Shown here piece after piece: positions 374 through 64,000 of a DNA stretch of 64,000 nucleotides. How positions within the stretch are numbered: the first letter of the stretch is position 1; each line of letters begins with the position of its first letter. This stretch comes from Ascidiella aspersa (lineage: Eukaryota): NCBI GenBank assembly GCA_963924565.1, contig OZ004612.1, positions 28,396,001 through 28,460,000 of the forward strand, in the 5' to 3' direction. The position numbers and the translations under genes are program-made. The notes below the pieces were generated by a model, which did not search any database, was not told the DNA's origin, and worked only from the letters and a program-made list of their open reading frames with translations.

Positions 374-679
374 TTTGCCAGCAATGCTGTGAAAATAAAC
401 TTTCCAAAGCATTTTTCAAGTCATTTATCGACGGCGACGACGATCCATAAACAAACGTTAGGCTAATGCTGCCCTTTTCTACCGATCCATCGGATACGAA
501 ACTAAGCACTTTACTTTCTTCTTCGTAATAACAGCCGTAAGATTCCACACCTGTGATTAATTGTGATTTCGGTTTACAGCTTTATTCTGCAAGCATGAAG
601 GCTAACTCAACTTGGACTTACCTTTCCAGATCATAAGTAAAATCAAAACTGTCCTCATGAGCCAACTGTTTTTCTTCAT
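374..679 (-). CDS. Receptor gene 0 (5' part only; continues off the left edge): signal peptide plus first ectodomain exon of the gene-A type
   Basis: Exon 622-679 encodes MKKNSWLMRTVLILLMIWK followed by GTAAGT. Exon 374-550 encodes GVESYGCYYEEESKVLSFVSDGSVEKGSISLTFVYGSSSPSINDLKNALESLFSQHCWQ with AG/GTAAGT ends. It resembles gene A exons 3626-3811 and 2776-2952 (FVSDG motif, terminal Cys). Confidence 0.75.
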
Positions 680-1545
680 TTTTTTTTAAAAGTATTCCTT
701 TGTCATTTTATAAGCATTATTGGCGCCAAAGTTTAAACAAATATTTCATTAAAGATATAGTGTAGCTGTCAGAATAACGAATATTGTTACCAGTGACTTT
801 ATTTATTTCATTTGTATACACGATACCACGCAATAATGTAAACAACATACTACATGCGAAGCAAATAACTTTGAAATACAATACAATATGAATATAAAAC
901 AGGAAATAACAGAATAAAATACAACTGCTAAATGACTTAAACGGAATCAGTCATGGCTTTAAGGATCATAAACAAAAAAACCGTCTATTTGACAACGGCC
1001 ACATTAAGTCACGCCTTATCTAATTATAGCTTTGATTCGCGTAAAAAGCCCCAAGGAAAATTAAAAATGCTGGTCACTTGAAATTGTAAAACTGTCACAC
1101 AGACTTATGCTGAAATGTAGGAAAGTTGAAGGATCAGTGTCGCTTAACGTGAAACACGGTAGCTAAAAGATATTTTGGACGCCCATGCAAATTTGTAATA
1201 TCTGATTTGCTTGTGGGCGTCATACGTTACGGATTTCATAGAAATATAAAATGGGATCTGGGCTCATTGTCGCAATTTAAACGTGACTGGCTCATATATC
1301 ATAATATGAAAAAAAGCTTATTAAAGCATAATCCGTGTTAAAGCACAGTGAGATGTTATAGAACTTATTGGCAGCATCTGTTAAAAAGTTCGGTTCACAT
1401 CGGATAGAGTTCATTGTGTGTGTTGAAACCTATTGGGCGGTTCATATGTGATAGAGCTCGTTATATGTTTGTGTTTAAAACAAAATCCAGATCGAAAAAG
1501 ATAGAACTCAATACAGATCTATCTGTTTCAAAACGTATAGTCAGT

Positions 1546-4131
1546 TTACATCCTATATAGTTCATTTTCCACCACTTGCTTCTCATTGGGTCCGGCCATC
1601 TCATAAGCCGCATTGTAATCAGGACCATCGCCCCTTTCACTAGCTCCACCATGGGCTTGGTATAGTTCGTTGTCGACCATTTCTCGCTGCTCGTATTTCT
1701 CGTACACGTTTCCCGGCCGGTTGTTGCCGATTGGTATGGTGTCGTTTACGCCGAGTGGACTTGCCTTTACTCCCCTGTTTTGCAGGTTGGCGACCATGAC
1801 GGCTTTAGCTGCTTTCAGTCGTATTCGCCTGTGTAATAATAAGACAAAAACTATACAATTTTTTGAATTTTGATCATGATAGGGGAGGCTTGTTCAAAAA
1901 ATTTCTGTCAAATTTGTGTTTTGTGCAAATTATTTTAAGGCGGTTCAATCAACTTTTCTTTAAATACATTAGTGTACACCTGGCACAAAATTTAAGGTTC
2001 CGGTGATTTAATGCAAGGTATTTTATAGTTATTTCCGTTTACAGAAATTCCCATTGACATCATTTTTAGGAACACGGTAAACGTCGTAAACAAGCTCCTA
2101 GAATAAAATCTTATATTCTTCCTTAAATTTATTAACTATACCTTTGCCATAGAATCAGAATGACGACTATTCCGATCAGCATTAATGCCACAGTTGCTCC
2201 AATCAAGCCATATGTCAGGTCTGAAATGTATGTGTGATTAACGTGTATGTTGATTTCACTGCTCAACGTCAATCAAAAGACGTGTATTGAACTTACTTGC
2301 GTGTCCCTGTGATTGCGATCCCAACGTTGTTTTTAGCTGCTGCAATGTCGTTAAGGCAGTGGTCATCTCAAGTGCGTCGGTCATTTCATTTGCAGTTGCA
2401 CTTTTCGTATTGGTCTTTCTGTTTGCGGTTGTGAATACTTTTGACGATATACTCTGAGGGTGTCTGATCGTATTAGGGCATTCTAAATGTAGTGAGTAAC
2501 TTAAAATGCAATGTCCTTAGTTGTATATTTAGGTGTCAAAAATAAACTTACTGTAATACTTTAGCGTATTACAAGAATTCTTATTGCGGGGAAACGACAT
2601 ATTAAAGCTTGAACTTGTCTTAATTTGAAATTGGATTGCGCTATTTCCAATGTATTTCTGTTCGGTACAATGCGGTTGACTATTATTCTCTTCTCCTATT
2701 AAAAACAGAAAACATCCCAATTAGTATATGTGCCTATTTTCGAACTACTTTATAGTATGGCAAAAAGTTGTATACTTAAATGACACCAATTTTCAAACTT
2801 TGGTTTCAGTTGTTCATTAGCTGAAAGTGTATGATCCTGGGTAAAATTTATGGTCACATAACAGATAACTTTGGTTCCGTCAGTTAGAAATGTAATACCC
2901 TCACATTCTGTAGATATTTGTACATCACAAGTGCAACCTTCCGGTGGTAAACCTGTATTTCGCAGGATAATAAATAGTTATTACATAGTATCACCATTTC
3001 TCTCAAATCGCATCTACAAAACGTGTTGAAATCGACAGTATACGTCAACTGTTTATGCGATAGGTCGGTGTTTCCGCCTATCTAAGTGACAATTAGTCAG
3101 ACCAAATCTGGAATAAGACTTTAGCGTCCATTGGAAACGAAGTTATGCTATACATCAGGTATCACCCCCCTATGCAATGATATTACTGTACTTTTAACCA
3201 ACTAATGGGACTGTTATAGGTCTTACGTGAGTTTGCTGAACTGAAGGGTTGTGATACTGGCGTGGTCGACATTATCATATTGGTCTTTTTGTTTGTAGTT
3301 GTTTTTCTTGTAGGTGATGTTATTGGGCGAATTTGGTTCTTGCTTGAACAGTTAAAATCTAAACAACATACGTCGCTGTAAACTTTATATTTTTAACCAC
3401 TATATGGCAAACCTACAGTGCGTAGCACGGTTAGAATCCTTAGAAGAAGTTTCTCCAAACGATACGTTGAAACTATTTCTTGCATTGATTCGGAAGTTAA
3501 AACTGTTGTTTCTTTTTTGCATTTTGCAAGTTTGGCCACCTTGATTAGCCACCCATGTAGTGAGACCTATAGGACGTTGTAGATATAACCTAACGTAGGT
3601 TTTCTCGCATTAAAACCAAACTTACCAGGCAAGCACCAGTCTGCAAAAGCCTCTTTCACATCGCTTATATTAGGAGGTAATAAAGCCTGAGCAATACTTA
3701 TAGTCACGTTACAGATCGTATTCCTTCCGTCGGATACAAATCCAAGGGTTCCATTAGAAGTAGATATAAGCACACTACACATGCATTCGTTCGGCTGCAA
3801 TTCCACCGTCACTTAAGCAAAACAAAGGTTATTAGCTGTTATGTTAAAATTCACGTAAAATATTTGTTACTGCAACTAATACTGATTTTAATTTAAACGC
3901 AATAATACCAGGTTAGGAATAGGATTTGATTTTACACTTTATGGCAATGATAAACGCATATCGATTTAATAGAATGGTCAAGTTTTACTCATAGAGTCAC
4001 AACATCGTCACCTCTTTTTACTTAGGTAGTTATGCACTTTTATTTTATACTTAAGTCTCTTTAGTGACCTTACCTTGGTTTGTAAATAGAATTGTCAGCA
4101 GTCCAAGTACGTTTTCTTTTTTAATCTTCAT
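1546..4131 (-). CDS. Receptor gene A: type-I TM protein (~464 aa) with two tandem unassigned ectodomain+stalk units and a tail with 2 NELY motifs
   Basis: Exons 4074-4131 (signal MKIKKENVLGLLTILFTNQ), 3626-3811, 3417-3566, 3227-3358 (stalk), 2776-2952, 2552-2695, 2297-2482 (stalk), 2142-2220 (TM LTYGLIGATVALMLIGIVVILILW), 1546-1828 (EMVDNELY...QVVENELYRM). All junctions are GT-AG and phase-consistent. Confidence 0.85.
3023..3146. repeat. Intronic copy of the sequence upstream of gene A
   Basis: gacagtatacgtca...gtcggtgtttccgcct...tctggaata...tccattggaaa aligns with 4190-4315. Confidence 0.85.
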
Positions 4132-4189
4132 ACTTATACCCAACTAAGTTTCGTTCATGGCGGCTACAACATTACTTAAGCAAATATAC

Positions 4190-8805: not shown

Positions 8806-9478
8806 ACTTTTAATCGATTTTACTTATAAATTGAAATAAAATGTATGACCATAGGAAGTTAGCTAAATAAAAATTATTTTTTTGATTAACTTTGGGTTTC
8901 TTGTTCTGTGCGGACAATACATTTGCTTCCGTCTTTTTATTTCCTTATAACTAGCCTTTCTTTTGGTTTCTATACAACAGGCGGCAAAGCTTGAGTTTTA
9001 CAACTTTGCAATCCTTTTATTGTTAGATGGTAACTTGCGAACCATATTCCTGAAACCATATCCTCTCTGAGGTCTTGCCAGCCAACATTTGAGCTGCTTT
9101 TTTCATAGTTCGTACGTATTAGAGTTTCTTAACGTAAGCTACAACACGTGTATCCTGTATGTCTGGAATTTTGTCTGAAATGACTAAAATTTGTTTTACA
9201 AATCTGTCCTGTTTTCGAGATTTAAGCTAGCAGACTTAACGATCTAAGTTTACGCTTTATTGACTGAAATCCACAACGACTAATAAACACCAATATAAAG
9301 CTATTAAAAAAAATAACACCGATATATACATCACAAAAAATACCAATGTACAGCTATTATGCTTAACGCCAAAATTGAAACAGACAATTATTTTTTAGGA
9401 CTGTTTATTCCAGAAACTCATTTTTTTCCTTTTAATTAAAAGCATAGCAAAAGTATTTTGTTTCATAGACTGTTTTTG

Positions 9479-11723
9479 TCATACATTCTTCTCGGTATTA
9501 TTCTCATGCGAATAGGATTGGTATAACGAGTTGTGTACCAATCCATAGTTATGGTCCGTTCCGTTTTCTTGATATTGAACATAGGTTTTATCACCAGCGT
9601 TTGCATGTGTAAGGTCAACTTTTGCATTGGTGTTGTAAATTGAATTTTCAACCATGCCGTAGTTGCTTTCGGCTGGGTTCGTTTGGCCTTGTGCCGAAAT
9701 TACATCATTTTTATCCGCTGGTGGAGACGATGTTTGATGATATATGGAATTATCCACCATTCCGTAGTGTGATTCCGCATTGTTGCTCCGTTGAATAGAG
9801 TTTTCCGCATATGTGTAATCCGTATTTTGGTTGCCGGCGTATGAGTCCAGGTTTTTGCTTTTCTTTGACGTTTTGTCATCGTGGCCTTTCCTTATGCATC
9901 TGGAATACGAATAAATTTAAATATTTTTTTTTATTTGGCTGTATTTGTGTTTAATAGAGACATTGGTTAAGGACATCTTACAGTTGGACTAAAATTAATT
10001 CATAATTCACGTGTTACTTTTTAGCTACCGCTTGAAACTCCAACTTTAAGCTAAGATTTTTAGACTGTTACCAAGAACAGATAATAATATATTTTCTTAA
10101 TATTGTCTCTAAGGAGTGTATTATATGCCTATTAAAGCAAGTTTTTTATTGTGTGAGCTTTGTTAAATTTGATAAATCAACTGGTTAGCAACATCACGTT
10201 TTACCTGAGGTATATAACAACAGCTATGGCGATGGCAAGTAACGGCAATGTTACACCGACAACAATTGCGGTGGTTGAATTGTTAGCATCTGGAATAAAA
10301 TAATATACTTGTAATTTGATTTATTTTTGTATACACGCCAATTTGACCAATCGCTTACCTTTAGGTGTTTGTGTAGTAGAAACAAAAAAGGGAGCTACAG
10401 TTGTAGTCGTTGTAACTGAAATTCAAAGTACAACTAATTAGGCGACTATTGTTATGGGTTTATAATAAATACCGGTCATACATAGGAAAATAGTCATTAT
10501 ACACGTAATACACACAATAATGTGTGATCCCATGTTTTTTCCACAAAGTTTTTTTTATCTTGCTACAACCCTAAACCATAATAACGTCCATTATAGTCAA
10601 CCTAGCAAAAACGTTTGGTAAACGCTTTAAGAACTTATATAGTTATAGTTTGCCTTTATATGCATAAAACTACAGTAGCCATTAAATTCGCAGTCCAACT
10701 TACCACCGAGAAATGCCATGTAAGTCAACTTTAATCCTTTTCTGGTTGTAATCGGAGCCACAAAAATGATTTTATCCCAAGACACCGGGGTGAGATTAGT
10801 ACAACCAACCCCACTGTTAACACCTTGTGAATTCCTTGCAATTAAAATGCAATCACCAGCAGAAAACTTCCTTCCTCCCTCTACAAACAAATATTGGATG
10901 ATATTTTTTCTGCTTTGCAGCTAAAAATACAGCACACAAGTCTATTTTACCTTGAAATGCGTTTACTGGCGCACTAATTCGTCCTTCCAGAACTAGCAGC
11001 TGTACCGCATCAAATCGCAACGATATGTTCATTCTAACTGGAATAATTTCAATTTTGTTCGAAGGAACGATTGTAAATGTTCCGTTGAAATCAGTGATCG
11101 AAAGCCATCTGGTTGAATTTCTTAAGGCCATAGTTAAACCTGAATTAAAATTACCTTTTTTGATTTAATCTTGCTGTAGTCAACATATATAGTCCGATCT
11201 TTAAAAAAACAATTGTAGAACATGAAATGAAAATTCTTATGACTTTTCTTTGAACATTAGGATCTTACAATCAACGGTTAAATCGGGGGATACGCTTATT
11301 AGTGTATAACGATGTTTTTGCAAATTTTAGCTATGATATAATTTTATTTATAATTCTGTCGTTTTATCCCTGTGGAATATGGTACAAAGAAACAATAACA
11401 CCTTTTAATTGCTATAAAGCATTGCTTCTCTAAAATATAATAAAATAGCAACCAATATGCCTTTGGCTCTACGCCTAATAAATACTAGTAAAATCCAGGA
11501 TATTCTTATTGATGTACAACGTTTTAAGTATATATAAAATATATTTTTCATATGTTTTCATTAATATATTGTTGGTTTTCTCTGTGGCATGGGGTATAAC
11601 GAAACGATAACACTTTTTAATTGCTGTAAGTACTACGGCATTAAATAATTTTAAACGAAACAACTTACCGCAAAAGCAAGTTAGCAGCATCAACGCATAA
11701 ACACAGTTGCAGTGCTCTGCCAT
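9479..11723 (-). CDS. Receptor gene C: divergent CUB-like domain, short stalk, TM, tail with three YG(M/L)VxNS(I/L)Y repeats
   Basis: Exons 11669-11723 (signal), 10951-11139, 10704-10880 (KGLKLTY), 10359-10415 (stalk), 10205-10289 (TM AIVVGVTLPLLAIAIAVVIYL), 9479-9899. Confidence 0.87.
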
Positions 11724-12446
11724 CAGCAGTATCCTCTCAATTACTGCTTAATAACTCCTATACTTCGCAATAGAAATAAGCTTAATGTTTTCCGATTAAC
11801 TTGAAAAGCTCTCCTCGGTTAAGCTATAAGTTATGTGTTGTTTGACGCGCAACTGAAACCGTGCCAAGGTTTAACAAATTACTTCTTCCGCTGACGTAGG
11901 TTACCCGTATACCGTATCTACAAGTGGCTTATATTATTCAGTAAGTTAAACGAGTAATTTCACGACCGCGTATACACTCATCACAGGCTTTCTAAATTTT
12001 GGCGAATTCTCAGAAAGCTATATTTTTCTTGGGCTACATGTAGATTGTGTGGTATACAGATATAGACAGCGACATGTTTGCATTAAAACACAAAAATTTT
12101 GCATATTAGATTGTTTCTTGTTTTAAATTGTTAGGAGGTTCTAAAACCTTGTTAGGCTAAGTTAAAACTAAAGCATTATCACTACCACCAAACTTGCTAT
12201 ACGACCATTTTCCAAATCAGTATAGCTATAGAAGATTAATATTTCGAAATCTAATAGAGATTTGGCGTGTTTACTAATCTTTCTAAGTCATAATGGTATA
12301 AATTTAAAACATTGACGTTGCCTAACATTATTGATTAGATATTTCTTCTGAAAAGTCGAGAGGAGTAAACCACATAAAAAGAAAAAGAAAAAATGCGATA
12401 AAAGTTTTAAAAAAAGGACGATATTTTGCACGAAGATACCTAAAAC

Positions 12447-12714
12447 ATTGGTTTATATTTATATAAACTGTTGCTACCAGGCATGGTAATATAAATCAAA
12501 AACAGATCCTCTGGTAATTGTAATTGTTAACCAACGTTTCGGCAACCTATACGAGCATTGCTCGCGTTATTTCTGGTTTTTTTTGCTTTTCATTTATTGT
12601 ACGAGCGTTCAGTGCCATTCACCCTGACGAAGGCGGCTTGTATTGGTTGCCGAAACGTTGGTTAACAATTACAATTACCAGAGGATCTGTTTTTGATTTA
12701 TATTGGTTTATATT
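12447..12714. mobile_element. Penelope-like retroelement remnant: ~70-bp inverted repeat with a hammerhead-ribozyme-like core
   Basis: Arms 12488-12557 and 12636-12704 are near-perfect reverse complements. ctgacga-a-ggcggc/gttgcc-gaaac lies at 12624-12656. The flanking 13-bp direct repeat attggtttatatt is at 12447-12459 and 12702-12714. Confidence 0.6.
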
Positions 12715-12859
12715 ATTTTATTGTACGTATTGCAACAAAATATACAACAAAAAAGTTGTTTAATTAATCTTCTTTGTCACATACGAAAATACAATAAATG
12801 CACGCGGGTTGTAATCGATTTATTTGTACTGTCTTGGATGTGGTTTTAACTTTTTGCCG

Positions 12860-15569
12860 CTAGCTCCGTTCAATGCTGCTTTGATACAAGCTGTTTGCAA
12901 CCATTCCGTAATGGCTCCCTCCTTCTATTTGCCCGTCTTGGTCACCACTCGCTTTTCTAGTTGTTTGGTTGCTGGCGCTGTCGTATATTACGTTGCTGGT
13001 CATCCCGTAGTGAGACGGCGGGCCACATTCGGCATACTGCTGGTTATTTCCCTGCGTTGTAGCAGCTCCCACAACTTCGTAAGTAGCTTGTTGCTGTGGT
13101 GAATTGGGTGCTGGTCGACTGTGGAACCTGCTCTCGGCGTTTGTGCTAGCCTTAGGTTTACGAGATGAATTTTTGTGAACACGCTTCCTAAAGAAATACA
13201 AACATGCAGTTATGGTTGCTGCTAAAACATATACCTGGTTGCTTGACTTATGTTGTGCCGTAATAGTATATATCCAAAGCCATATTTTTGCATTCGTTAT
13301 ATCATAGAAGACCCAAATGTTGATTGTTAAACTAAAAATAATCTTGGTTTTATATTTAATTTATGAACATTTCAGTGGTAATCTTTTTTTGGCAGCTTAG
13401 AAGAAATCAATGTAGACTGCTTTCTTACTTGAGAACTGTTGCCAGAATTAGAAGCATAATTCCAAGAAAAACTCCCACAATAATTCCAGCCATAACGTCG
13501 CTGCCAAGGCCACCTATATAGAAAGAATATTAACATAAAATATTAAAATAAACGACATCCCAATTACCAATACTAAAATACTGAAAAAAATATGAAGTCA
13601 AAAAAATCCAAAACTGAAAATTAGAAAAACAATCTTTCGTTTAATTAAAGTTGTATGATACGTACAAATTTCAATACCTGAGTTGCCTAAAGGTTTTGCG
13701 GTGGTTAAACGATCGCTGTCTACACCGGTTACTGCATAAGTTGTTGCAGACCCCACCATTGCATCTGTAGTCAGTGGTTTTCTGGGTGATTTTGTTCGCA
13801 CTATGTTTGTCGTTGTTTCAAGAGGTTCGGCTGGTCTTGTTGCCAATGTCAGTATTGTCTTCGTTTCTTAAAACACATGTTATTTTGGAATAGAATAGCT
13901 GGACCAAAGCTCATACTGGTTTATTTAGCTTTTTTTGAACGTTTCGAATAAATCTTAGTTACACGAAAGAGGGAATACAAAAAGTTCAGAAAAAGTTTTA
14001 AAAATTTAAAAGATATATTGAAAATGAATAAAGACTTTCTAAAAGCTTTTACCAAATGCAACGTAAACTTCTCTATGAGATTTGGTATTTCTTTCAATGT
14101 AATTTTATTTGTGGTACTGATTGATGTGTTAAGTTTGTTAGCTGAAACGTACCTCTTGGCCCAAAGCTTGACCTTATTCTTGATGATAACGTAGAAATCG
14201 TTCCAGGAATGCTTTGTTTTGCTAAAACATAACAGAAAATAACAAAGTAGATGGAATCAGTATATTATTTGAAAATATGCTTTCTTTTAGGTTTAATAAA
14301 CTATGCAAAAATACGTTATAGAATAAGTTTTAGTAAACAATACTGTATTACCGACATGTTAAGGGAATAGATAGAGTGACATTTTTACATCATGTACAAT
14401 AACGTTCTATAATTTTAACCCAAATTTTAACTAATTTTGCCTTAATATTTTACCGCTTAACGTTATTGTGAATGTTTCTCCTGGGTTCGACGCAAATGCG
14501 ATAAGTCGCATATCTCTCCAATTCTTGGCCGTCACAACTTTACACAAGCCGTTGTTTTCCTGTGTTTTTTCTGAATACCTCAAAATTCGTACTGTTTCTT
14601 GTTCCCCTTTCGTTTCACATGTTGCTGAAACAATGCATCTATTTTATCGATTGTTTTTAGTTGTGTTTGTCTTTATCAACAGGATAATTGAACACTGTAT
14701 AAAAAGGCTTGTTTGGTAACCGTATTTGTCTTTACAAAAAACTGAACACTAGTTCACAAATTGTATTTTCGTAAAAAGGCTTAAACGTGATACAACAAGC
14801 ATAACTTTGAAGCACACTCAAGTTGGTTGATGACTCAAATGATATACCATTGGCCGCGTATTCCTACGTGAGTGACTCGAATCTCACCAAAGTGCTTTGC
14901 TAGCACTATATTGAACGTTTGTTGTTCTTTTTCTTTTTTCTTTCAGTTAACCAGCATATTTGCTTCAGAGTCAGACCTCATTTATTTATTTAACGACTTT
15001 GGCGTGGTTTATCTACTTATTTAAGATGTTGCTTGTATTACTGTATAGTCCTTCTTATAATCAAAGTGCAGTTTACATATTCTCCACAAAATATCCCGGC
15101 CAACTTTTTTTTTATATCACCAAAGATCCAACTTTATACTTACTATCAAACGAGGTTATGTTCAGAAATATCGCGCTTGAGTTTTCCAAATGCAAGTCGA
15201 TTTGGTCATTTTCTCCCCCATCTATTGTTAACAAGCATAATCCTTCTTCTGGCGTTGTATTAAACCTTTGGTTGACCGCTGACTGTTCCACCTTGAGCGT
15301 GTTTTTGCATGGGGCAGACAACATAATTTATAGTTTCTACCTAATTCGATAAACCAACAAACTGATGGAAAGATTGCTAGGTACGTTACATTACCAGCCA
15401 ATTATGTGACTAATCTGGATATTCTGTCTCATTATTGTCTAGCAGGTCTGTAATATACGCGGTGCTCTTTGTTTTTCCAAACGTTTTAAACCTACTAACC
15501 TGAGCATGAAAGCTCATTTAGTTGTACAGCTGGTATTGTCTGACTTTTTTTAATTAACGCGATATACAT
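12860..15569 (-). CDS. Receptor gene D (5' end apparently defective; possible pseudogene): divergent CUB-like domain, stalk, TM, Tyr tail
   Basis: Exons 15144-15314 (expected acceptor reads TG, not AG), 14454-14624, 14153-14221, 13678-13866 (stalk), 13429-13513 (TM VMAGIIVGVFLGIMLLILATVL), 12860-13187 (YAECGPPSHYGMTSNVIY...SHYGMVANSLY). Candidate first exon 15500-15569 is not hydrophobic. Confidence 0.7.
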
Positions 15570-16736
15570 TTTCAATTTTATGAAGTCGCGATATCAGAAC
15601 ATCTTGTTTAAAGCTCCCAATACTCTAATTCTTACTGTATAAATAAATGCGATGCTACCACATGTAACAACCTTAATATAGCGCAAATTAAATCCCATAA
15701 TACATTACATTAATCAAGTCTCACAGGCTTTATCTGTCTTCAAAATTCAGCCTATATAGTCTGAATTGCAAGGCTTAGATGAATGCATACTGTAGAAGAA
15801 TACCCCTGGTTGTCACGATCTGCCAATAGTGCAATGCAAATATTCGGACAGCGCTAGCTAAGACAGTCTGACTCGTCTCATGTTTGCCGGATGTTCTTAC
15901 GTGAAAATCTTAAATTTAACCTAGCAATGGCCTGAAGGTCCCTTCAGTTTACTGAAATGAGCCCCGCCGTTGAAAAAGACCGAGGTAGAAATAAAAACAC
16001 AAAAATGTGATTGTACACAAGACAATGACATGCAACTTTTAAGGTATGTTAATCTACGTATACCTGACTCTTTTAGGTCTTACCCAGTGCTAGAACTGTA
16101 CGGTAAAATATTTTGACCCATGTTGCACAGACCATGTAATTAGTCAAGTACAAAATATGACAAAAACTTTTGAGGACATATTTGATTGGTTTGCGCAGAA
16201 TTTTACATAACGCTCTCTATAATATATGGTTTAACAATTGCGAATGACTCACAAAAATGACCAAGAGTCCGCTTAGCTATTTTTACTTTTTCAAATTGTG
16301 TTAATTTTTGAAAAAAACTTTTTTGCTTTCTGTTATCTCCTTATTAAAACAAATACTGAACTCGGACTAAAAATATATCAATAATAGAACAAATCAAAGA
16401 TGAATATTTGCGTTTAAGACCTCTCAAAAACGGAATCAAAGTGGCGAACCGTTTTATTAGCATCATGTAGACAACGAGAAAATGTGACTTCATAAGTTAT
16501 CAAATTACCCAATTGAGTAATTTACACAAACTATGAACCACAAAATTAAGCTTTTTAATGCGGCAAAATAAAAAAGCTTGTTATCAAATGGTAAAAATAC
16601 ACCAATTTAAGTAATCAAATTACCTCTTGAATAGCGAACCATAGAAATTAAGCATTTGCGATAGAAAAACGAAAACTTCCGTCTTGGAGCACTATATGTT
16701 TTTTGGCGCGATTTTGTCTTGTCTTTTGTGTAAAAT

Positions 16737-19302
16737 CTAATAAATAGCATTTGATGTCATCCCGTAATGCGACGGAGGTCCACATTCGGCGTACTGGGGT
16801 TCGGCTGGGGACCCAGAAGCTTCGTAAGTAGGGGGTTGTGCGCTTGCACCTTGTGCAGTGTTTTGTCCTGGATGCTTGCTTTTGCTGTTGCGTCTTTTGC
16901 ACCTGATCAGAAATAACAAGTCAAACTCAGTGTGTGGGTAGGTTTGTGTTTTTGTACGTTTTAAAATGTATGTAACATTTTCTACAAGACATAGGACTTT
17001 CGAATACCAAAACTTATGTTTCTTTTATGAAAAAAAGTAATATAGTACTTTAATCGTAATTTTAGCAAACGTTTAGTCTAAAAATAATTAAAAAAATTTT
17101 TGACCTACTTAATGTTTGGCCCAATTTTTACTTCTAATTTCTTTACCTCTTTACATTTTTACCAAAATTATCTCTTTAACTAAAGAATGTATTTTATTAG
17201 TTGCTACACTTTTTATTATTTTGCCAAACGTCTTGTTTCGATGTCATCGGAGGCCCTATACAAAAACATATACAGTTATACACGCACCTTAATAGCAATG
17301 CTGCTGTAATCACGAGGATAAGAATAACGGCGAGCACTATGGCTGCTATTGCACCACCGTTAAGACCGTCTGTAAATTCAAGAATTCTTTATTTGTCAAA
17401 GTTTGCACAACGTGAAGAGAAACGAGTTAGCATTAATTTTAGCCTCTAAGTTTTTTTTTTACTTTTGGCATGGTACCAGAACTTTTACTTTTGATAGAGT
17501 TCGTTAAATAACATGTTGCTGTTCTAATGGCTCGAATTTATAAGTATATATACTTCGTTAAATAGTTTTTAATTTAATTTAATTGTTTTCTGTCCTAAAA
17601 AAAGCAAAATGTGGCAATAGTTAGAACCAATGAACGAAGCACACACGAATGTGTGTTTACAACTGTGATGTGCCCTTCTGAAGCTGGAGGTCGTGAGTTC
17701 GAACCTCACTGCAGGCTTGTTTTTCTAGCCTGCTCAGCTTGCATCCTTGATCGACAGATTTGGTGAGTCTGCGATTGCTTTCGGTGTACTAGTTACAACC
17801 AGAGTTGTTGTTTTAACTGTATGTTGATATATCATTTTAAACTGGTCATATGATCAGAACATACTTTTTGTTGTTGCTGTGCCTGGTTTAGCTTTTGTCG
17901 TTTTAGTTGTCGTCGTTTCCGTCTGTTCGCTTGAACCAGAACCTAAATTCAATAAAGAATGCATCAGTTTCTGCATTAAGAAATTACTACTTTTTTATCC
18001 ACGGCTTAATGCGGATGTTGTTTAAAACTCCGAAATCGAATATAAACTTCATTATTTTAATTTTCTAGCAACCCAGGGGTATGTTAATTACTCTTTCATG
18101 TTTGTTTAAAAAATTTTCACCTTCTTGCACCACTTTAAACTCCCCTCTATTAAATCTCGCTTGTATAGTCATGTTCTTCCAATCTATGGCGTAAATAAGG
18201 AGACAACCGCCAGGATTTTTTCCACCAGAATTCGATCGACGGATCTCGATACAATTATCATTGCTGGTTAAACATCTGGGTTCATCCTTGGGTAGGGCTG
18301 AACATATGTTGATCACGTACAAGCTTACTGTTTTCTTAGACAAAAAACATGTTATAAGTGGTAAAATATTAAGTGTATATGATAAATATAATATTTTCCT
18401 GATTCAAAACAATATACCTTCCTTAAACGACGCTAAGGTAAACATTATAATGACCACAAACACTAACTTTGTGGACACCAGTTTAGTTATAACAAGACGC
18501 TATAAGTTAAAACAGAAAAGAAAACCCATAAATCGTATCAAAATGTAAAATTAGCTAAATAAAACAATTTATATTGGATAAATTTAATTAAACGTTTATT
18601 TTGTGGAGGTGTCGTACCTCCACTATTGAAATAACACAATATTTTTACAGCCAACCTGAAAAATACTTTGGATAAAATTTCAATCTTCCCTTTTCAATGA
18701 TCAGTTTTACTTTTGTAAACTTTCCGCCGTTTATCTGAAGCGAGCATCGCCCCGTCAGAGAGTTGATTTTGAAAGGTCGCTCTTTTGACGTTACTTTAAG
18801 AACCGGCTTATTGCATTGCTTTAAGTTGTCTGTCATACATATATTTGCCTGTCATACTTATATTTTTCATAAAAAAATTATATATATATTTATAAACCTG
18901 TGTAATCCGTGTCATTAATTACTTTATGAAGCTGTGTAAAATCAGCAGTAAAGGTTTTGTAACTTTTTTTTAAATGCTGGAAAAAAGTGAGACCCATGTT
19001 TTATCAAAAATTGGCTGAGTTATATTAATATTGTTTAAGTTTCAAAAGTTTGTTGTTAAATATGTTATTTGTTAAAAATGCCACATATTTACTTAGCCTC
19101 AAGAAATGCCCAGTTGCAATAGAGGCCTCTTGTTCAGCAAGTAGTTTGTACAACAACCAGTCGTGCGAACTGTCATACTTGTTTTGTTCACATAAGTACA
19201 GTACTGGTTGCTATTTAATAATATTATACTCATACCTTGTAAAGCCGCGATGCTGATCAGTGCAAAACTGAACAACACCTGGAACGTGGTTCTTGTCGTC
19301 AT
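16737..19302 (-). CDS. Receptor gene E: divergent CUB-like domain, stalk (second stalk exon SINE-disrupted), TM, short tail
   Basis: Exons 19236-19302 (signal MTTRTTFQVLFSFALISIAALQ), 18656-18829, 18121-18297, 17865-17942, [disrupted exon from 17816], 17288-17369 (TM GAIAAIVLAVILILVITAALLL), 16737-16902 (YAECGPPSHYGMTSNAIY-stop). Confidence 0.8.
17663..17742 (+). mobile_element. tRNA-derived SINE fragment
   Basis: B-box region gaggtcgtgagttcgaacctc is identical to the copy near 49748; the 3' part tagcctg...cttgc is shared with the copy at 33565-33648. Confidence 0.65.
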
Positions 19303-20026
19303 TTTGTTCAATAATTTTACAAAGTCTAATTACCAAAGAATACAAGTTACACAATACCAGTATAACTAACGATTCGCATTACACATGTAGGCAATTTACC
19401 TTGTTAACTCTTCCACTGCGATAATCTATTTCTGTAGTAGAAAATAAATCAATAACTTTTAAGCGCATGCTTTGTTGAAATTAACTTATCTCAACCCAAA
19501 AGTGTGAATATTCTTTTGTTTGTGTGACGCAATGCATGCTGGAGGAAGCCCATTCTTCCTAGTACAATGACTGGTAATTTGCCATTCTCACTGACCTTAT
19601 ATAAACCGTTACTGATCTATTCTGTCTTTCCAAGAAATTTTAGGTCCCGCATATTGTCACCTAAAACAACCCTGTCCGAATTTACTTTATTCCGATGTAT
19701 TTTTTCTTGAAAATCATTGTTTGCCTTGAACATTGTTTGCCTTGAACGTTATGTAGTTGATTTGACACATATTTACTTGTTTTTACAGCATTTTATTTCC
19801 AGAACGCAGCACGTTTTTTGGGGTAAACGAAACGTAATCAAAGTGCACTTCGTGACAAAAATGTACAACAATGTTCCCAAAAAATCAACCTGAATAATTT
19901 GCGAAAGAAGTAATTCGTAAGTAATAGCACGTTTAAAGAAAATATAAAACCGGCGTAGCGAAATAAATTGCGAATAACATTAATATAAGTACAAATAAAT
20001 AACAGAGTCATGATTAAAATCGCATT

Positions 20027-23000: not shown

Positions 23001-23302
23001 CTATATGCAGCTTACAGGTTCCGATGATAGGATCGATTTTGAACGTTTCTTTCTTTGCTGACACAGTTACCGTCCTTACACACGACTGGCAGTTAGCTGC
23101 ATGAATAGAACAAGTATAAACATCATTGGAGTACATTAAAGTGTTACAAAACGCGTTTTAAACGACTTATGCCATTAATTATTCGGTATTATAACGTAAA
23201 AAAGTTAAATATATTGTAAATTTAAACATAGTTAAATAGCTTACCATACTGAATGATCTGATTCATCCAAAGTAGGACTCCCAATAATTTATAAAATTTC
23301 AT
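20027..23302 (-). CDS. Receptor gene F: divergent CUB-like domain, mucin stalk, TM, long Tyr-rich tail
   Basis: Exons 23245-23302 (signal), 22923-23096, 22153-22320, 21673-21726, 21341-21535, 20802-20883 (TM GVIAAIVIVILLLIALVVALVL), 20027-20462 (SHYGLTSNVAY, SHYGMTQNSLY, THYGMVENSLY). The ectodomain is clearly paralogous to D and E (GxCxLxIxGG; WxxM motifs). Confidence 0.88.
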
Positions 23303-23795: not shown

Positions 23796-23894
23796 AATAT
23801 TTGGCGCTTTAATAAATGTAGTAGCTTTACGTGACTTGCCTGCTCTGTAAGTTAAGTCACGTAAACCTCCTACATTTATTGAAGCGCCAATATT
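23796..23894. other. ~100-nt hairpin with ~41-bp near-perfect arms
   Basis: aatatttggcgctttaataaatgtagtagctttacgtgactt pairs with aagtcacgtaaacctcctacatttattgaagcgccaatatt across a 16-nt loop. Confidence 0.75.
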
Positions 23895-45098: not shown

Positions 45099-47859
45099 TT
45101 ATGTCGCCTGAAAGCCGTCATACAAAACATTGTCGACAACTTGCCGCTCGTTCTTGTTCGACTTATCAACTACAGCATAAAGATCATCCGGTTTATTGCT
45201 GGGAGGAACAACGTTGTTACTTCCGGGTTCAGGGGCTTTATTTTCTCTCGTATTGACGTAAACCGTTGCCTCTGACGTGTCGTAAATAACGTTGTCAACC
45301 ATATGACCATTCCGGTTCGGTTGTGGTGCGTTTGTTTGGTTGGCTGGCGAGCGATTGGTAATGTTTTGATGCAAAGGCAAGTTTTCCGTCGGTTTATTCT
45401 GCTTTCTACACCTAGAAAATCACAATCAGTTTAAATAGCCAACATACACATTTTAACGCGGTATATACGAGAGGAATTGTAAATTATATAACCCATTAAT
45501 TAATTTAAACTACGTTATTTTGCAGTTTATTACCTGGTTACCTTAAATAACAAACATTATTAATTATGATACAGCTAAGGATATATTCTGTTAAGTTTAT
45601 CTACCACGTTAAACAGTTTTTACCAGTGTAGGTAAAATGAAGAAAAAATGTTTAACAAGACGCAGTAAGAATATCGAAGCCCATTCAGAAGTAGGTAGCA
45701 TTTTTAACGTTCCGAATATCTATTTATCCCAACATGATTAGAAGTCACTGATATAAATACCCTATATTTATTCACAGCAATAAGAATGCATGTCGCTGAT
45801 AACAGATAGGCTAAGACCCATCCACATGACTCAGATATTCAAAATAAATAGTGGTGTTGAGAACAGGAATTTAGTTAACATTAAACCTAAGTGGCCCGTC
45901 TTTATTGGAAACATTTTTAAACTATATAAATACACATAATATTGAACAAATTATCACATAATATTCTTACCTCAAGTAGAACACGAGAACCATTATGAAT
46001 ATAAGTCCAACGACCACTCCAACCACTGCCCCGATTATTCCGCCATATGATGCAGCTGCATTATCTATAATCGAATTCAAAATTAAAAACACAAGAATCC
46101 GGACCTAACCGGCCTTGAGTAGCCTAAAGTACTTTCCTAACTAGTCTTAAATCTTAAAGTTAATGTAGCTATAAGATTACCCGGTAAATAGTAATGAGTA
46201 TAGTCGTTATTTCTTCCTAATTAGAAATGTTGGTCCATTAAACTAAGTGTTGTTTTCTCATTTGTTTGTTTTACTCTCAAAATCAGTGTTAAACCGCATG
46301 CTACAAAGAGTAATAACCAAAACCTATTTACCGCCAGGCGATGAGTTTTCTTTGACTGTTGTCGTCATGGGCGATTTAGTTGACGTCAAGGGCGGTATTG
46401 CTGTCGATGACGTTGTCGTTGACGTCATTGATGACGTAGTTGCTGAAGATAATGGTATTGAAGTGGTAGTTGTTGAACTTGTGGCTGTGTTTGTGGTTGA
46501 TGTAGCTGTTGGTGTTGTGGTTGTTGTTGGTGTTGTGGTTGTTGTTGGTGTTGTTGTAGTAGTAGTAGTAGTGGTAGTAGTTGTTGTTGTTGTGGTTGTT
46601 GATGTTGTTGTTTTTGGTGTAGTTGCAGCTTAACATTGTATAACTATATGTTAAAATTACGTTCTCGTCGTAAGTATTGACACTGAATAAAAATTACTGT
46701 TCACGCAATAAACAATATTTGGCATTTACTATCACCTTTTCTGGCACATATACGCTGTTTGGTAAGTAATGGATTACGTGCATGTTAGTCCACTATACAA
46801 ACTGGACCACAAAGGTTTAGAAATATTTAGGAGTATTTAAAAACAAAATACCGTAGTTCGGCTAAAAGGCTACTTGAAATTTAATAAACACGGGTAATAC
46901 AATGGGGCTTCATCTTTAACGTAATGTAATACTTTACGTGTTTACCTGAAACGTTTACTACGTTGAACTTGAGACTGAATCCCTTTCGTGTGCTTCCACT
47001 GTCGGAGTAGAAATATACGTTGTTTGGTGAGCTGATTGTTTCTACATATGTATGTCCCCTGCAAGCTGGTGGTATACCAGCTGTATTTTCAACTTGAGTT
47101 GTCACATGCTTTAGCACAAAGCACGTTGGGGGTGGCGAATTTCCACAGATGATCAAATGCCGTCCAGAGTTTCCTAATCACAATTGGTAAACTAAGCCAC
47201 ACTGATGTATCACGAAATAAAACCGTTTACGATGGCACTTTAAATTGGCCGTATTACTTTTGTTAGGGCTCACTGGTTATGGTTACTCACCTTCGTCTTG
47301 AAGCGTCAGATGGTCGATGCATTTCGACACATTACTGGCGCAATATGGTGTTTTACATGAGACTCCTTTTAAAACCTTAAGATCGGTTATCTGAATAACA
47401 ACAACTTGGTAATTGTCGTTCGCTCTAAATGACCATCTGCATGCTTGGTATGGTGGATAGTTGTTGGGATAGTTCGGTGAAGTAATAACCCCTGCCGGTG
47501 TATTTGATGTCCAGGCTGTGTCGACCGCACAGGAAAGTCCATCTGTTAGACTTGTAAAAGCACCTATATACAATAATAACAGTTACATGAAAGCACATAT
47601 ATACAGCAATCACAGCTACCTAAAAGTACCTATATATAACAATCACAATTACACATTTTATTGTTGTATTTTTTTTTGTTGCTATTCTATCGCATTACAG
47701 ACATTTTGGATTGGCTTAATTAACAAACTTACTTACATTCATGATATATCCATGTGTGCATTTTTATTCTAAATAGCATCTTTTTATCTGGTAGCCATTA
47801 CATTTAGTTTACATACCTGTAATAACAGCCATAACCAGTAGAGAAACATAATCCAACAT
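45099..47859 (-). CDS. Receptor gene K: CUB domain, long poly-Thr mucin stalk, TM, Tyr tail
   Basis: Exons 47817-47859, 47291-47563 (GVITSPNYPNNYPPYQACRWSF), 46946-47173 (FYSDSGSTRKGFSLKF), 46332-46628 (99-aa Thr-rich), 45971-46064 (TM), 45099-45411 (MVDNVIY, VYVN, LYAVV, VVDNVLY). Confidence 0.92.
47555..47653. repeat. 3 x 33-bp tandem repeat overlapping the gene K exon-2 acceptor
   Basis: taaaagcacctatatacaataataacagttaca / tgaaagcacatatatacagcaatcacagctacc / taaaagtacctatatataacaatcacaattaca. Confidence 0.85.
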
Positions 47860-58752: not shown

Positions 58753-61700
58753 TTACTGCGAGTCGCCGTAAAGCACATTTACCACTGTCTCCTTCTCCTC
58801 GTTCTCTGGCCTCTGATTGGTCGATTGCTCCTGGTTTTCAGGCCTCTGATTGGTCGATTGCTCCTGGTTTTCAGGCCTCTGATTGGCCGATTCCTTCTGG
58901 TTCTCTGGCTTCTGATTGGTCGCCTGCCTCGCATTGATACTGGTTCGTTCGTACAGCAGGTTAGTTGCCCTGGCTTGCTCGATATCAGTCAGTTTCTCAC
59001 GACTGCTTCCCGGTCGCGAATGGTAGAGAATATTTTCGACCTCCACGCGATTCGCGTTCGCCTGTGTTACGTCACCATTACTCGGGGAATCCCATTGTTT
59101 ACGTCCGTAGAGTATATTCATTTTTGTTTCCTTTTCTTCCTAAAAAAACAAAGAAAAAAACGGTAGTGCCTTAAGTTCACTTCCAACCTACAAAGTTAAC
59201 GAGCTATATGGTATTATTGGATTATTTTTTATGACGTCACGTTTTGACGTGACTTTGTGATGTCATCAATGAAAAATTGGCATAGCCTTCCTCAAATAAA
59301 ACTTCAAGACCTGTGCCTGTTAAAATCCGCCTGATCCGATATTATCGGACATCAATAGTTTTCAAAAAGCTCTTAAAACGTGGTTTAAAGCCTAATTTAG
59401 TTCTGTGTTATAATAACCTGTGATTGTGCCGCGTCCCGTATCGTGCTGTATACATTGTTGGGCTTGGCCGCCCGGTCGCCGTCGCTTAGCAACGCGTTGA
59501 CGTCATTGGCGGTGATGTAGCCGTTCGAGAGCGACGCCGAGTTTTCGTTGATGACATGGTCGTGTGACGTCATCGCCGCAGGCGCCTGGAACGAGCTGGT
59601 GGTCGGATGAGCGCTTCGTCGGTTGTTGGCCGGCAGGTTCTCGGAAGTGACGTAAGGGTTCACGACCTCTTCTCTTGGTGACGTCATAATTGGTGTTTTT
59701 CGTTTTTGTCTGAAATTTACCAAGGTCGGCTTGGATTTTATTTTTGTGGAAAGTAAGTTTGTTTATATAAATTTGATATCACATCGTTGAAATAGATATT
59801 TTGTTTGATTGGACTTTATTTTACTTTGTAAACTTACACTATAAACTTAAAAATCTCTATAAAAATATAAAAATATACAGGAATATTGATATCTTAGCAA
59901 GGTATTGATGTTAAAACCAAAAAGCCTACTTGGCCGTTGTTACACGTAAATTATTAGCAATTACAAACTAGTAAATATTAAAACAAAAATGCCCCAGCAG
60001 TACCTAGTGCTTTACACACCAAACGTGGCATATTTTGATATACATTTAGTGTTTAAAATGTTTTGTTTCCTAATCAACCACTAATTGCCGAAACATGCTA
60101 CATCGTTCCGTTAGGTTTCCAAGAATACAATACTCAGGCCAGAGGTTTCTTCTTACCTCTTCATATACAAGCAAGCCAAAATGATCGTTGTTAAAACCAT
60201 TAAAAACCCGACAACTCCTGCGATTATGTATATCAAGGTGGACTCTGGAATTAGAGAAGATATTTAAATGTTGTCACGATTACATAAAATGTAGTATGTA
60301 CCACAATTCATTAACACTATATAATTTATATAGCATCTGTTTACAAAAAAATATTTGTAGGCTTTTTTCATTTTTTTTAATGTAATTGGGGATTCGTAAT
60401 TCTTATATAAACCTAATTTGGTTTTGACCATTTTGTAACAAATATTTGCAAATGTATGCCAATTATAATTACATGCAAAACGATTACCGTCAAATGGTGC
60501 TGGCAAGCTTGTTGTAGACGAACTGTTTGAGGTTATTATTGTGGATGTTATTGTTGCTGTTTGAGTCGCCGTTGTTGTTGTAGTTTTTGTTGTTGTCGCT
60601 ATTCTTATAGTTCTTGTTGCCACTGTAGTTGACATTGATGTTATGAAAGGCAATGTTGTTGTTGTTGTAGTAACTGGTTCACCTCTAGCGTTTGAATCTG
60701 GCACAGAAATCAGCCTATTTTGTAATTTAGTAATAATGGTTAAGTTTGGGATAAAGGCAGCCCACAATGCCCAACTAAAATTACCCCAACGAATGCTATT
60801 CAAACCCTATGTAAACACGTTCTTCTTCATGGTAATTTCACTATTCTTTTAATTTTCCTACTGATTTGATCGCTGCAACATAAATGACCAAGTTCGGAAA
60901 CAATTGTGGTCTGCAATGATCCCTTGCTTACACTGCCACAAGATATACACACATAAATAGTTGTTTTAGAAGTGCGTATATTATAAACTCCTAGTACAAT
61001 TTGTCTATGTTATTTATACTTAAACCTGCTAAATAAATAGCTAAATTTTGAGCATAATACAAACGTATGAAACTAACCGTCAACTTTGACGTAATAATAG
61101 CTCATACGAAATCCAGTGTGATTTGCATTGACTCCGTCGGAATAAAACAGAACCTCGTAATCTTTCTTTATACTGTTTAAACGTCCTTCAACCGTTTTGC
61201 AATATCTCGCTTGTAAATCAGCTGAGGGTTTAATGCGGTCACGTGTAACAATATAGCATCGGGATATGTCTGTTGTGCCACAGATGTCCAGTGAATTTCC
61301 CTTGGGTTCTCCTAAAACATAATTGCTAAAATAAATTTCAAAAACAGTAAACAACGATAAATTCCAAAAAATGAATTGCAAGTCAAGAAGGTTGAGTAGA
61401 TCTACATCGTATTGATTAAGACCTCGACCATTTTGGCTTGAAATCAAATTTTTTGAATTAATTTTTTGAAATTTACACAAGCTACATTACAGATCCGTGC
61501 ATAGTTTGCTCAATTACAATGTAAATTAAGGACAACGATATTATATTAATTTTACGTTCGTGACAAAATAATTTTACCGTTTCCCAACGTTAGATGATCG
61601 GTACAGGAACCAGGTTTAGTGGACTGACAAAAATCTGTTTGTTTACAACTGCTGCTTATTGTTTCAACATGCAGTGAAGTGATTTTCAGGAAGAGTACTT

Positions 61701-61984
61701 CATCCCTTTCAATGTTAAAGAACGTCCATATACAATGTTGTCTAACGGGGTAGAATCCATTTGGCGACTGCGGAGAACTGATAGTTCCTTGCGTTTTGTT
61801 TATGTGAAGCTGCTCTCGGCTTACGTCACAGTAGGAAGTAAATTGCGAAAAGCCTTGAGAAAAAATACTTGCTTTTTATAAATTCTTTCGTTGTCATTAA
61901 ATACAAAATATTCGTCTTACCTGGTGATACAGACGATAACAATACTACCAACAATGTCCAGTTTAAAACGGAATCGCGAAACAT
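58753..61984 (-). CDS. Receptor gene N: CUB domain, mucin stalk, TM, long two-exon tail with 4 N-x-L-Y motifs and an 11-aa repeat
   Basis: Exons 61921-61984 (signal MFRDSVLNWTLLVVLLSSVSP), 61578-61853 (QGTISSPQSPNGFYPVRQHCIWTF), 61078-61311 (FYSDGVNANHTGFRMSY), 60488-60697, 60157-60244 (TM), 59418-59709, 58753-59139. A probable 5'UTR exon has its donor at about 62225. Confidence 0.9.
58790..58921 (-). repeat. Coding minisatellite, 4 x 33 bp (TNQRPENQEQS) in the gene N tail
   Basis: TNQKPENQKES ANQRPENQEQS TNQRPENQEQS TNQRPENEEKE. Confidence 0.9.
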
Positions 61985-63869
61985 TATTACCTTTTAGAAG
62001 CCTCACGTTTAAAACCTGCCTAAAAAGCGTGCAGTTTATAGATCATGTTAAACCTAACTTAATTCTATATAAAGTATAAACTCAATTGCAGTCTGAAACA
62101 TAACCAAGTAGCGTAAGTTAACTGAAATTACGCCACGTGGTTTTTAACCTAACACAGTTCACTGATTGATCTTTTCCCTCTACAAATGTCACCTATTTGA
62201 TCATTACACTCTAAAAAGTACTTACGTGCCAGAAAGATGGCGTACAAGGGTGACTGACAGCTCCTAGTTAAGCCATAACCAAATTTTGTACTGTCTGTTA
62301 AAGTTTACACAATGCTCAGAATCAAATAAGTCTGAATTTTATCGATAAACTCAATAACTGCCAACCCAATGCCAACAATTCCACCAGATTAACTAGTTAA
62401 AATGCCACTGCTTGAATCGGATCTGTCAAACGTCGTTTGAGGGCTTTCTTCATATCACGAACCGACTCCGGCTTGTATTTAAAGCGCCCAGTTCCCGGAA
62501 ACTAAATTTAACGCCGCTCGACTGACGGAGTTAATTCTGTCACGCTTTTGTGATCTCGGCCGATGTGTAATAGCGTATGCTTGCTTGGGACTTCGACGTC
62601 ATTTGTTAAACTCCTAAAACCCAAGGCTGGCGTACATTGTTTTGCAGGATACTGTTAATATTGTCACGTTTAATTTTTTTTACAACGTCAAAAAAACGTG
62701 AGATGACAGTTTATAATTTTACCCGCAAAGGCTTAATGTATGCTTCTTTCATTTTATCTGAACAAGAATGGTTTATTCACTCTATAATCCAGGTATTCTA
62801 TTTAATTGCATTAATTACTACCAAAAAAGTAGGAAATATAGTTTGGATATCACGTTTGTTTTATGAAACACTATTCTGCGTGGTAATTTAATTTTCTATT
62901 TCATGATCATTTTTAAGCTGCATAATAAATGTTTATGAACGATGAATTAAAATGTATTTTGCCAGCAATATACAAAAAGTTATATGTAAGTTCATTTATT
63001 ACAATTTTCACAGTTGTTTGTTAATAAACAAACGCCCTGTTAAACGAAAAACGCATAAAAAAGAAACAAATAAACAGCAAAAATGCGACAAAAACGTTTG
63101 CTTCGCAACTATATATCTCTACTTCGCAACTATCTTAAGCGCAGCAGCCCTTTTTGTCAAGTTCGTGTGATTATAGTTTCTGGTCAATGTACAAAAATGC
63201 CATGAATGCATTTAAAGTGTATATTTAAAAAAAAATCAAAATTACATTAGGTTCATTTCACTCATGTTATGGTGTTTTAAATTCGTTGACCCGGACAAAG
63301 ATATATTTTCAATAAATTTACTATAATTACTTTACTGAGAATAAAGTTTTCTCGCTATATTTACCTTGGGACGTTTGCTACACAATATATTGATCAGAAA
63401 GAATCTAATGAATCCAGTTACTTTAATTAATCATACTTATTTTGAAACCAACACCTATTGACTATTAACTTCTATTGGATCTAGTCCTTCGTGACGAATT
63501 ACTTGTACTGGTATTGACTTTTGTTTGTTGCAAATTAATGTGGACTAAATTCAATTAAAACGAATTGTTTAGCGCGATTTAAAACTCGAAGACGTAATTC
63601 CATCACATATTTTGATGCCCATACTATGGTATTGAATAATGTGATATTATGACGTTAAGTAACTGGTCAGTTGGCCTAAGATTTGGCAAACGCCTTATAT
63701 TTGGTTAAATACTTTGGAAAATGTAATCAAATATTTTATACTATGGTAATGATTAATGTTAGGTATTGGTGTAAGTGGCTCAATACTTGAACTATAACTT
63801 GACTTGTTGGTATTTTGCAAGCGACTCACATTGGACTAAAGCCAACCAAAACAACTTGTTCAATGCGAT

Positions 63870-64000
63870 TTAAAACTGGAAAACGTTCGGCGTCTTATCG
63901 CGTTTACTGAAGTTAACATAAGCGTCTTCATCCACTCCAGGCGGCCTCACTATGGGCTGCATGTACGTGGCATCGTTACTCTCCTCTACTACATTGTTGT
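63870..64000 (-). CDS. Probable C-terminus of the next array member (gene O, extends beyond the right edge)
   Basis: Open frame NNVVEESNDATYMQPIVRPPGVDEDAYVNFSKRDKTPNVFQF-stop. It is GC-richer than its flanks, on the same strand, and has the acidic Tyr-motif character of the other tails. Confidence 0.6.
   Translation of the reverse strand, partial: NNVVEESNDATYMQPIVRPPGVDEDAYVNFSKRDKTPNVFQF

Follow-up and report, generated by a model that had tools for sequence, protein, structure and literature searches.

A tandem array of predicted CUB-type, tyrosine-tailed membrane proteins in Ascidiella aspersa: a candidate paired-type receptor complex

The window analysed here, a stretch of 64,000 nucleotides from the ascidian Ascidiella aspersa (contig OZ004612.1 of assembly GCA_963924565.1, positions 28,396,001 to 28,460,000), carries on its minus strand 16 gene units, about one per 4 kb, predicted to encode type I membrane proteins. 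We call them G0 to G15; G1-G14 lie completely within the window, G0 enters it with its 3' end and G15 with its 5' end. As read from the sequence, the genes share one architecture, their tails fall into two main classes, and one CUB ectodomain has recently been exchanged between a gene of one class and genes of the other. From these features, and by analogy with vertebrate receptors, we think it rather probable that the array is a paired-type recognition receptor complex. Its predicted layout and evolution resemble such a complex, and by the features tested it belongs neither to the Botryllus fester receptors or CD200R nor to the families based on immunoreceptor tyrosine-based activation or inhibition motifs (ITAM, ITIM).

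Two tail classes and an exchange between them

The tails carry 3-14 tyrosines each, and the motifs described here were chosen after the sequences had been seen. The pattern hydrophobic-x-N-x-x-Y occurs 25 times in 12 of the 15 in-window tails, against a mean of 2.6 after shuffling, and none of 2000 shuffles reached 25. G8-G13 harbor an extended form, Y-G-[ML]-[VT]-x-N-x-x-Y, in 11 copies, and the Y-x4-NxxY spacing alone was found 11 times against 0.1 by chance (0 of 3000 shuffles). The tails of G0 and of Ga, Gb and Gc, three members of the array beyond the window, have YxN motifs and no NxLY; YxN occurs five times in Ga and G0 together, against 0.8 by chance (2 of 3000 shuffles). YxN is a Grb2 site. 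In the 15 in-window tails YxxM stays at chance level. By these motifs the tails split into two main classes, NxLY (phosphotyrosine-binding (PTB) domain type) and YxN, and the genome has seven matches to IRS-type PTB domains.

The two classes are linked by a tract in G4 and its partners outside the window:

46924..47581, minus strand: putative conversion tract in G4, made up of exons 2 and 3 with the intron between them; ~650 bp match Ga and Gb at 92-93% identity
+68399-69055 (Ga) and +72046-72692 (Gb), 21-25 kb from G4: the partner stretches, in genes with YxN-type tails

Identity of G4 to Ga and Gb is 93/91% in exon 2, 92/92% in intron 2 and 94/96% in exon 3 (86-90% for the CUB protein), versus 43-58% in introns 1 and 3 and 45% in the tail (30-34% as protein), with a sliding identity profile that falls off on both sides of the tract. 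The G4 tail matches that of G5 (E 7e-8; NxLY class), and the YxN tails of Ga, Gb and Gc are 81-84% identical to one another. Consistent with this mosaic, the ectodomain tree places G4 with Ga and Gb (support 83/95, not starred), the tree of transmembrane (TM) segment plus tail being without resolution. Approximately unbiased (AU) tests of groups that were defined after the identities were seen reject G4+G5 (p 0.026) and Ga+Gb+Gc (p 0.033) for the ectodomains, and G4+Ga+Gb (p 0.0016) for TM plus tail. Because the tract is bounded on both sides, gene conversion fits it better than a single crossover. Its two borders, and the fact that its sequence is identical to neither Ga nor Gb, also make it unlikely that G4 is misassembled. 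A CUB domain kept almost unchanged on two tail classes matches the signature that gene conversion leaves in paired receptors, and G4 versus Ga/Gb is the one case found here of clustered genes with near-identical ectodomains on different signaling tails. Positive selection within the tract was considered and set aside; in exon 3, all 11 changes between Ga and Gb are replacements and none is silent (p 0.08), and the other pairs are neutral or purifying.

Gene models, ectodomains and extent of the array

Models were built by coordinates from the whole minus strand together with splice-site lists, and are predictions throughout. The common plan runs from a signal exon through ectodomain exons, at least two in each complete model, and one or more serine/threonine (S/T)-rich exons (all phase 1) to a TM exon (phase 2) and the tail; in G2 and G3 the S/T-rich exon is fused to the TM exon. 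All 14 complete models are free of internal stops, and 13 use AG acceptors throughout. The exception is G11, whose exon 2 has no strong in-phase AG acceptor, so that a TG acceptor is needed; since its signal exon is also doubtful, G11 is possibly a decaying copy. The junction between the two tail exons is inferred in G1 and G7, and a possible extra stalk exon was excluded from the G3 model. A sequence-only reading of the window had described a tandem complex of at least 16 minus-strand genes with a shared exon and phase plan, and both points are borne out. Its label "mucin" is weak for some genes, the S/T fraction of the stalks ranging from 0.19 to 0.66. The GC content of the window is ~35%. 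The genome has a GH6 match that clears the Pfam cut-off (in animals GH6 is a tunicate cellulose-synthase trait), which, with the ARL6IP1 identities given below, marks the host as an ascidian and probably a phlebobranch. The genes, all on the minus strand, are as follows (aa, amino acids):

63870..64000: G0, last tail exon; the gene reaches 66326 outside the window, with signal exon, S/T exon, TM and a tail with three YxN motifs
58753..61984: G1, CUB and S/T stalk, TM at 60244-60157, 5 NxLY-type motifs in a tail of two exons; 517 aa
55033..57527: G2, CUB (Pfam pass), stalk+TM exon, tail with 4 tyrosines and no NxLY; 343 aa
49050..53143: G3, CUB (Pfam pass), short stalk+TM, tail with 3 tyrosines and no NxLY; 357 aa
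45099..47859: G4, CUB (Pfam pass) on a long Thr stalk, TM, G5-related tail of NxLY type; 416 aa
40537..43368: G5, CUB (Pfam pass) on a stalk, TM, tail of NxLY type; exon 3 ends at a GC donor; 354 aa
36072..39391: G6, N-terminus rich in Thr, then degenerate CUB and TM, 3 NxLY in the tail; 364 aa
30545..35192: G7, degenerate CUB, stalk, TM, two-exon tail with 10 tyrosines; 346 aa
25944..29324: G8, CUB (Pfam pass), stalk, TM, tail connected with G9-G13 by a Y-x4-NxLY motif; 353 aa
20027..23302: G9, divergent ectodomain in two exons (candidate CUB), stalk, TM, tail with 14 tyrosines and three Y-x4-NxxY repeats; 389 aa
16737..19302: G10, divergent ectodomain, TM, short tail ending right after the first NxIY; 248 aa
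12860..15698: G11, divergent ectodomain on a stalk, TM, two Y-x4-NxxY in the tail
9479..11723: G12, divergent ectodomain on a short stalk, TM, 12 tyrosines in the tail with Y-x4-NxxY repeated three times; 328 aa
5094..8805: G13, divergent ectodomain of borderline likeness to the CUB profile, TM, a single Y-x4-NxLY in the tail; 325 aa
1546..4131: G14, 60-aa Cys module present twice, stalks, TM, NxLY tail; 415 aa
374..658: G15, first two exons; the gene runs to -1910 outside the window, with TM and a G14-like NxLY tail; 317 aa

Some tails show local duplication. The G1 tail has about four short tandem repeats with a QRPENQ-type unit (58756-58910), and directly downstream of the G8 tail exon lies a non-coding duplicate (79-84%) of the end of that exon (25739-25861). 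A 117-bp orphan copy of part of the G6 tail, 89% identical and with no other exon nearby, was found on another contig (C8; L047:1500-1616). Outside the window, the tail of a further member, Gd (L008:3190-3520), contains YINV, YVNE, YEEP and YMNM, the last of which we take to match the CD28-type PI3K/Grb2 motif.

A CUB ectodomain had been attributed to all 16 genes; six have a clear one (G1-G5, G8) and two a degenerate one (G6, G7), whereas seven are candidates. In G0 the signal exon and the TM are separated by an S/T exon and no CUB exon. The Pfam CUB (PF00431) cut-off was passed by 5 of the 30 exon open reading frames scanned (exon 2 of G2, G3, G4, G5 and G8), and none of the 30 matched an Ig family, at a sensitivity that is low on half-domains. 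Once spliced, G1-G5 and G8 score 27-47 bits (26.8 for G1) on an external CUB profile, against 6.9 for the best of 462 decoys, this profile being made of five external CUB domains that were themselves selected with an array-derived profile. Because the exon-3 profile of the array also finds multi-CUB proteins and the CUB domains of MASP and neuropilin, exons 2 and 3 are read as jointly encoding one CUB domain with two Cys-rich inserts. G6 and G7 lack a Pfam match and join CUB at the profile level, in rounds 1-2 of an iterative search; grouped with Gd, they give hhalign values of 94% to the array CUB profile and 13.5% to the external one. No Pfam CUB match was obtained for G9-G15. G9-G13 retain the split into two exons as well as two cysteines and a C-terminal strand of similar kind; they are collinear over 104 columns, though at an hhalign probability of 2-4%; G13 is borderline in the iterative CUB profile search, and the tails tie this group to the CUB gene G8 (E 1e-4 to 1e-6 for G8 versus G9, G10, G11 and G13). 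G14 and G15 show no link to the CUB profile. The 60-aa Cys module of G14 recurs in G15 and in G16 and has no family match, a search of the PDB with it returning TSG-6 (E 0.53) as the sole match. Structure predictions for single exons were of low confidence (predicted local distance difference test scores of 58 and 51), and a fold search from one of them gave no match.

Ectodomains align at E<1e-3 in 17 of 91 in-window pairs and in 5 of 13 neighbor pairs, in agreement with the claim that many neighbors barely align. The companion claim of conserved tails applies to the short motifs, which recur, and not to whole tails, which are no more alignable than the ectodomains (13 of 91 pairs). In homologue searches, the neighboring ARL6IP1 gene finds its Phallusia mammillata (79% identity) and Clavelina (69%) counterparts. 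For the array, G4 exon 2 gave one match among 35 candidates from protein databases, a frog multi-CUB protein, and no family member; the tail alignment matched none of 5042 candidates; and the exon-3 profile retrieved 420 proteins at E<=0.001, of which the best 150 all have at least three matched stretches and none has the Cys-rich insert of the array in the best domains inspected. ESM Atlas searches with G12 exon 3 and G14 exon 2 yielded nothing usable. No description of the array was found in the literature on ascidian, tunicate and Ciona CUB proteins, receptor clusters and allorecognition, a search that left subscription journals mostly uncovered. The array is apparently undescribed, as had been proposed.

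The flanks, examined over 100 kb on each side, confirm that the array runs off both window edges. By manual reading it comprises ~28 genes spread over ~126 kb, between -12 kb and +114 kb on the window scale, with full or near-full models for G0-G16, Ga-Gd and Gf and partial ones for the rest. Six further minus-strand membrane genes, most with tyrosine-rich tails, widen the block, which then reaches from about -27 kb to +148 kb, for a total of ~34 membrane genes over ~175 kb; their ectodomains include FN2 (Pfam pass in 1 of 3 exons), Vps62-like (1 of 3) and mucin-only types. Searches of the species' own genome with the G12 tail and with exon 3 of G9, G2 and G4 matched at the array locus only, and a search with G8 exon 2 matched there and at three ordinary CUB exons; no second cluster was found in the 308.6 Mb (75 contigs) at this limited search sensitivity.

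Comparison with known systems and alternative readings

To our knowledge, clustered paired-receptor complexes are built on Ig or C-type lectin domains. CDCP1, DCBLD1/2 and LAT/PAG resemble the array in a CUB ectodomain with a phosphotyrosine scaffold tail or in several YxN motifs per tail, and differ in being low-copy, multi-domain or without an ectodomain; on the Pfam model of the CDCP1 CUB domain, the array exons stay below the cut-off (best 23.5 of 27 bits). The activating partner of the Siglec-11/16 pair has a charged TM residue and an adaptor.

Siglec-11/16 matches G4 and Ga/Gb in a conversion limited to the ligand-binding exons, in differing signaling ends and in relaxed constraint within the converted part (PMC5701461), but is built on Ig domains, whereas both partners in the array have long tyrosine tails and uncharged TM segments. 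The fester family and fester co-receptors (FF/FcoR) of Botryllus schlosseri are likewise ascidian, clustered and type I, with several tail tyrosine motifs and intergenic mixing of ectodomains and tails (PMC12582321, PMC11507803), an exchange ascribed to intergenic recombination (PMC11507803). FF/FcoR are Ig-superfamily proteins with ITIM or hemITAM, whereas the array has CUB domains with NxLY and YxN and no two-family gene pairs were seen in it; the term CUB is absent from the main texts of both papers except within a DOI. CD200R has a non-ITIM tail with the Y-x4-N-x-x-Y spacing of 11 tail motifs in G8-G13, and in non-mammalian species V, S or T often replaces the proline of its NPxY, as in the array (PMC8007030). 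Its ectodomain is of Ig type, and the array lacks the EEDE, PYxxY and K elements of the CD200R motif; as read from tyrosine contexts, the full motif EEDExxPYxxYxxKxNxxY does not occur in the array tails, which share only its spacing, and the likeness is probably convergent. Finally, the ITAM-bearing hemocyte glycoprotein of Halocynthia and the vCRL1 protein of Ciona are membrane proteins of solitary ascidians with tyrosine signaling or individual variability; the former has ITAMs and the latter CCP domains, and neither is described as a CUB array in the review that treats them (PMC5465252).

As a paired-type complex, the array would be a birth-and-death family of ascidian recognition receptors acting like vertebrate paired receptors, each protein having an O-glycosylated stalk that bears a single CUB or CUB-derived domain, and signaling through its own tyrosine tail. 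Ligand binding would cluster the receptors and a Src-type kinase would phosphorylate the tails, whereupon YxN tails may recruit Grb2-type adaptors and activate, and NxLY tails may recruit PTB adaptors of the Dok kind and dampen, as CD200R does. The cells could be hemocytes or barrier epithelium, and the ligands microbial or self-surface molecules.

Several results weigh against this interpretation. ITAMs occur in none of the 15 tails, and ITIMs are near chance (5 matches in 4 of 15 tails versus 2.0 expected, with 106 of 2000 shuffles reaching 5; none in G4). No TM segment of G0-G15 has a charged residue, and the only one among the 21 genes modelled sits at the TM edge in Gf. The PTB matches in the genome carry no identification as Dok. 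Only one exchange event was found, and it could be neutral; within the tract, the three pairs have ratios of nonsynonymous to synonymous change of 1.2, 0.54 and 0.33, versus ~0.25-0.3 for older pairs, and none is significantly above 1. The analogy with paired immune receptors made in the sequence-only reading is strengthened by the conversion tract and by the Y-x4-N-x-x-Y spacing, and weakened by the lack of ITAMs and charged TM residues and by the near-chance ITIM count.

Reads add further cautions. RNA and DNA were mapped to 9401-29400 (G8-G12, 5 of the ~28 genes), the RNA comprising 7.8 million records (~6% of the data), of which 1331 mapped, mostly on repeats. Outside repeat bins the RNA depth is 0-1.5. 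Reads on G12 and, sparsely, on the G9 tail have the orientation expected for minus-strand RNA, four on G11 exon 2 have the opposite one, and orientation is mixed overall; none of the modelled introns is among the 15 listed of 267 splice joints. This is weak evidence for low transcription of the region. All 30 bins are covered by three DNA runs, which come from one study, were compared at a 90% likeness floor and may include the run from which the assembly was made. The long DNA contigs listed differ by 0-22 letters per 0.4-3.3 kb, and among 40 listed of 529 variants 13 were mapped, 11 of them in exons (6 codons changed, 4 silent); the runs show no sign of extreme allelic variation or gene loss over G8-G12.

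These variation data bear most directly on the idea that the array is a self/non-self locus of a solitary ascidian, encoding receptors or determinants of the hemocyte contact reaction. Contact reactions are known in solitary ascidians (PMC5465252), and the allorecognition receptors of Botryllus form clusters, have tyrosine tails and exchange both their ectodomains and their tails (PMC12582321, PMC11507803). However, because variation is ordinary and no gene is missing over G8-G12, the allorecognition part of the earlier proposal finds no support, and we regard it as improbable. An equally small chance is given to recognition molecules of gametes or of developmental or neural cells. CUB domains occur in fertilization proteins and neuropilins, neuropilin CUB domains were among the PDB matches, and reproductive genes also evolve fast; against this, no conserved orthologue was found, whereas the housekeeping neighbor finds its Phallusia and Clavelina counterparts, and one copy is apparently decayed and one truncated.

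A somewhat stronger alternative, still unlikely in our judgement, holds that these are epithelial surface glycoproteins for uptake or adhesion, with NxLY as an endocytosis or recycling signal, the stalks as glycocalyx and the exchange as a neutral by-product of tandem layout. NPxY/NxxY motifs are mostly trafficking signals (PMC8007030), a point that also counts against the paired-type reading, and unrelated multi-CUB membrane proteins among the library matches have DNPLY-like tail motifs as well; moreover, gene conversion between near neighbors is established not to require selection. Yet the YxN class, the tandem Y-x4-NxxY repeats and up to 14 tyrosines per tail exceed the needs of a sorting signal, and the ectodomains have diverged beyond recognition.

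Within the paired-type interpretation, we raise as a tentative and rather doubtful extension that the whole 175-kb block of ~34 tyrosine-tailed membrane genes (CUB, FN2, Vps62-like, mucin-only) is a third, independently built chordate receptor complex, in which CUB-based pairs balance Grb2-type against Dok-type tails without ITAM or ITIM, and that it is the hemocyte recognition system of solitary ascidians. If a CUB-based paired complex did exist in the sister group of vertebrates, the same logic would have evolved again with different parts (gene conversion, PTB- and Grb2-type tails). For recognition by the hemocytes of solitary ascidians, and for their contact reaction, the array also offers named candidate genes and, in G4 versus Ga/Gb, one ready-made pair. 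It is larger and more mixed than first described, with fewer supported CUB domains and an added pairing signature.

Neighboring genes and minor features

Further genes in the flanks are:

L013:6318-7013, L014:1891-2439 and L014:3775-4020, upstream end of the block: FN2-like, Thr-stalk, TM genes; one exon clears the Pfam fn2 cut-off
L018:545-1567 and L019:3999-7244: a pair of membrane genes whose ectodomain exons are Vps62-like and whose tails carry tyrosines, in one of them within ENILY/DNVLY motifs
Window +116.8 to +118.3 kb (L012:2773-4269), minus strand: membrane gene without a Pfam match, its last exon encoding a tail stretch of ~484 aa in which DNVLY-type units are repeated many times in tandem
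L026:2936-6622 and L025:9184-9774: single-ORF (open reading frame) gene with a 1229-codon frame, which from its sequence we take to be DHX8-like, and single-ORF ARL6IP1; both lie 80-97 kb downstream and can serve as synteny anchors

A genome-wide search with the tail-motif pattern gave 123 matches versus 64 for the control, dominated by a repeat close to the ends of contigs, and seven chosen places held no family gene. Within the window, high-copy interspersed repeats lie at 12488-12704, 17686-17791, 22447-22836, 28850-28930 and 29200-29260, one of them with 69-nt inverted arms.

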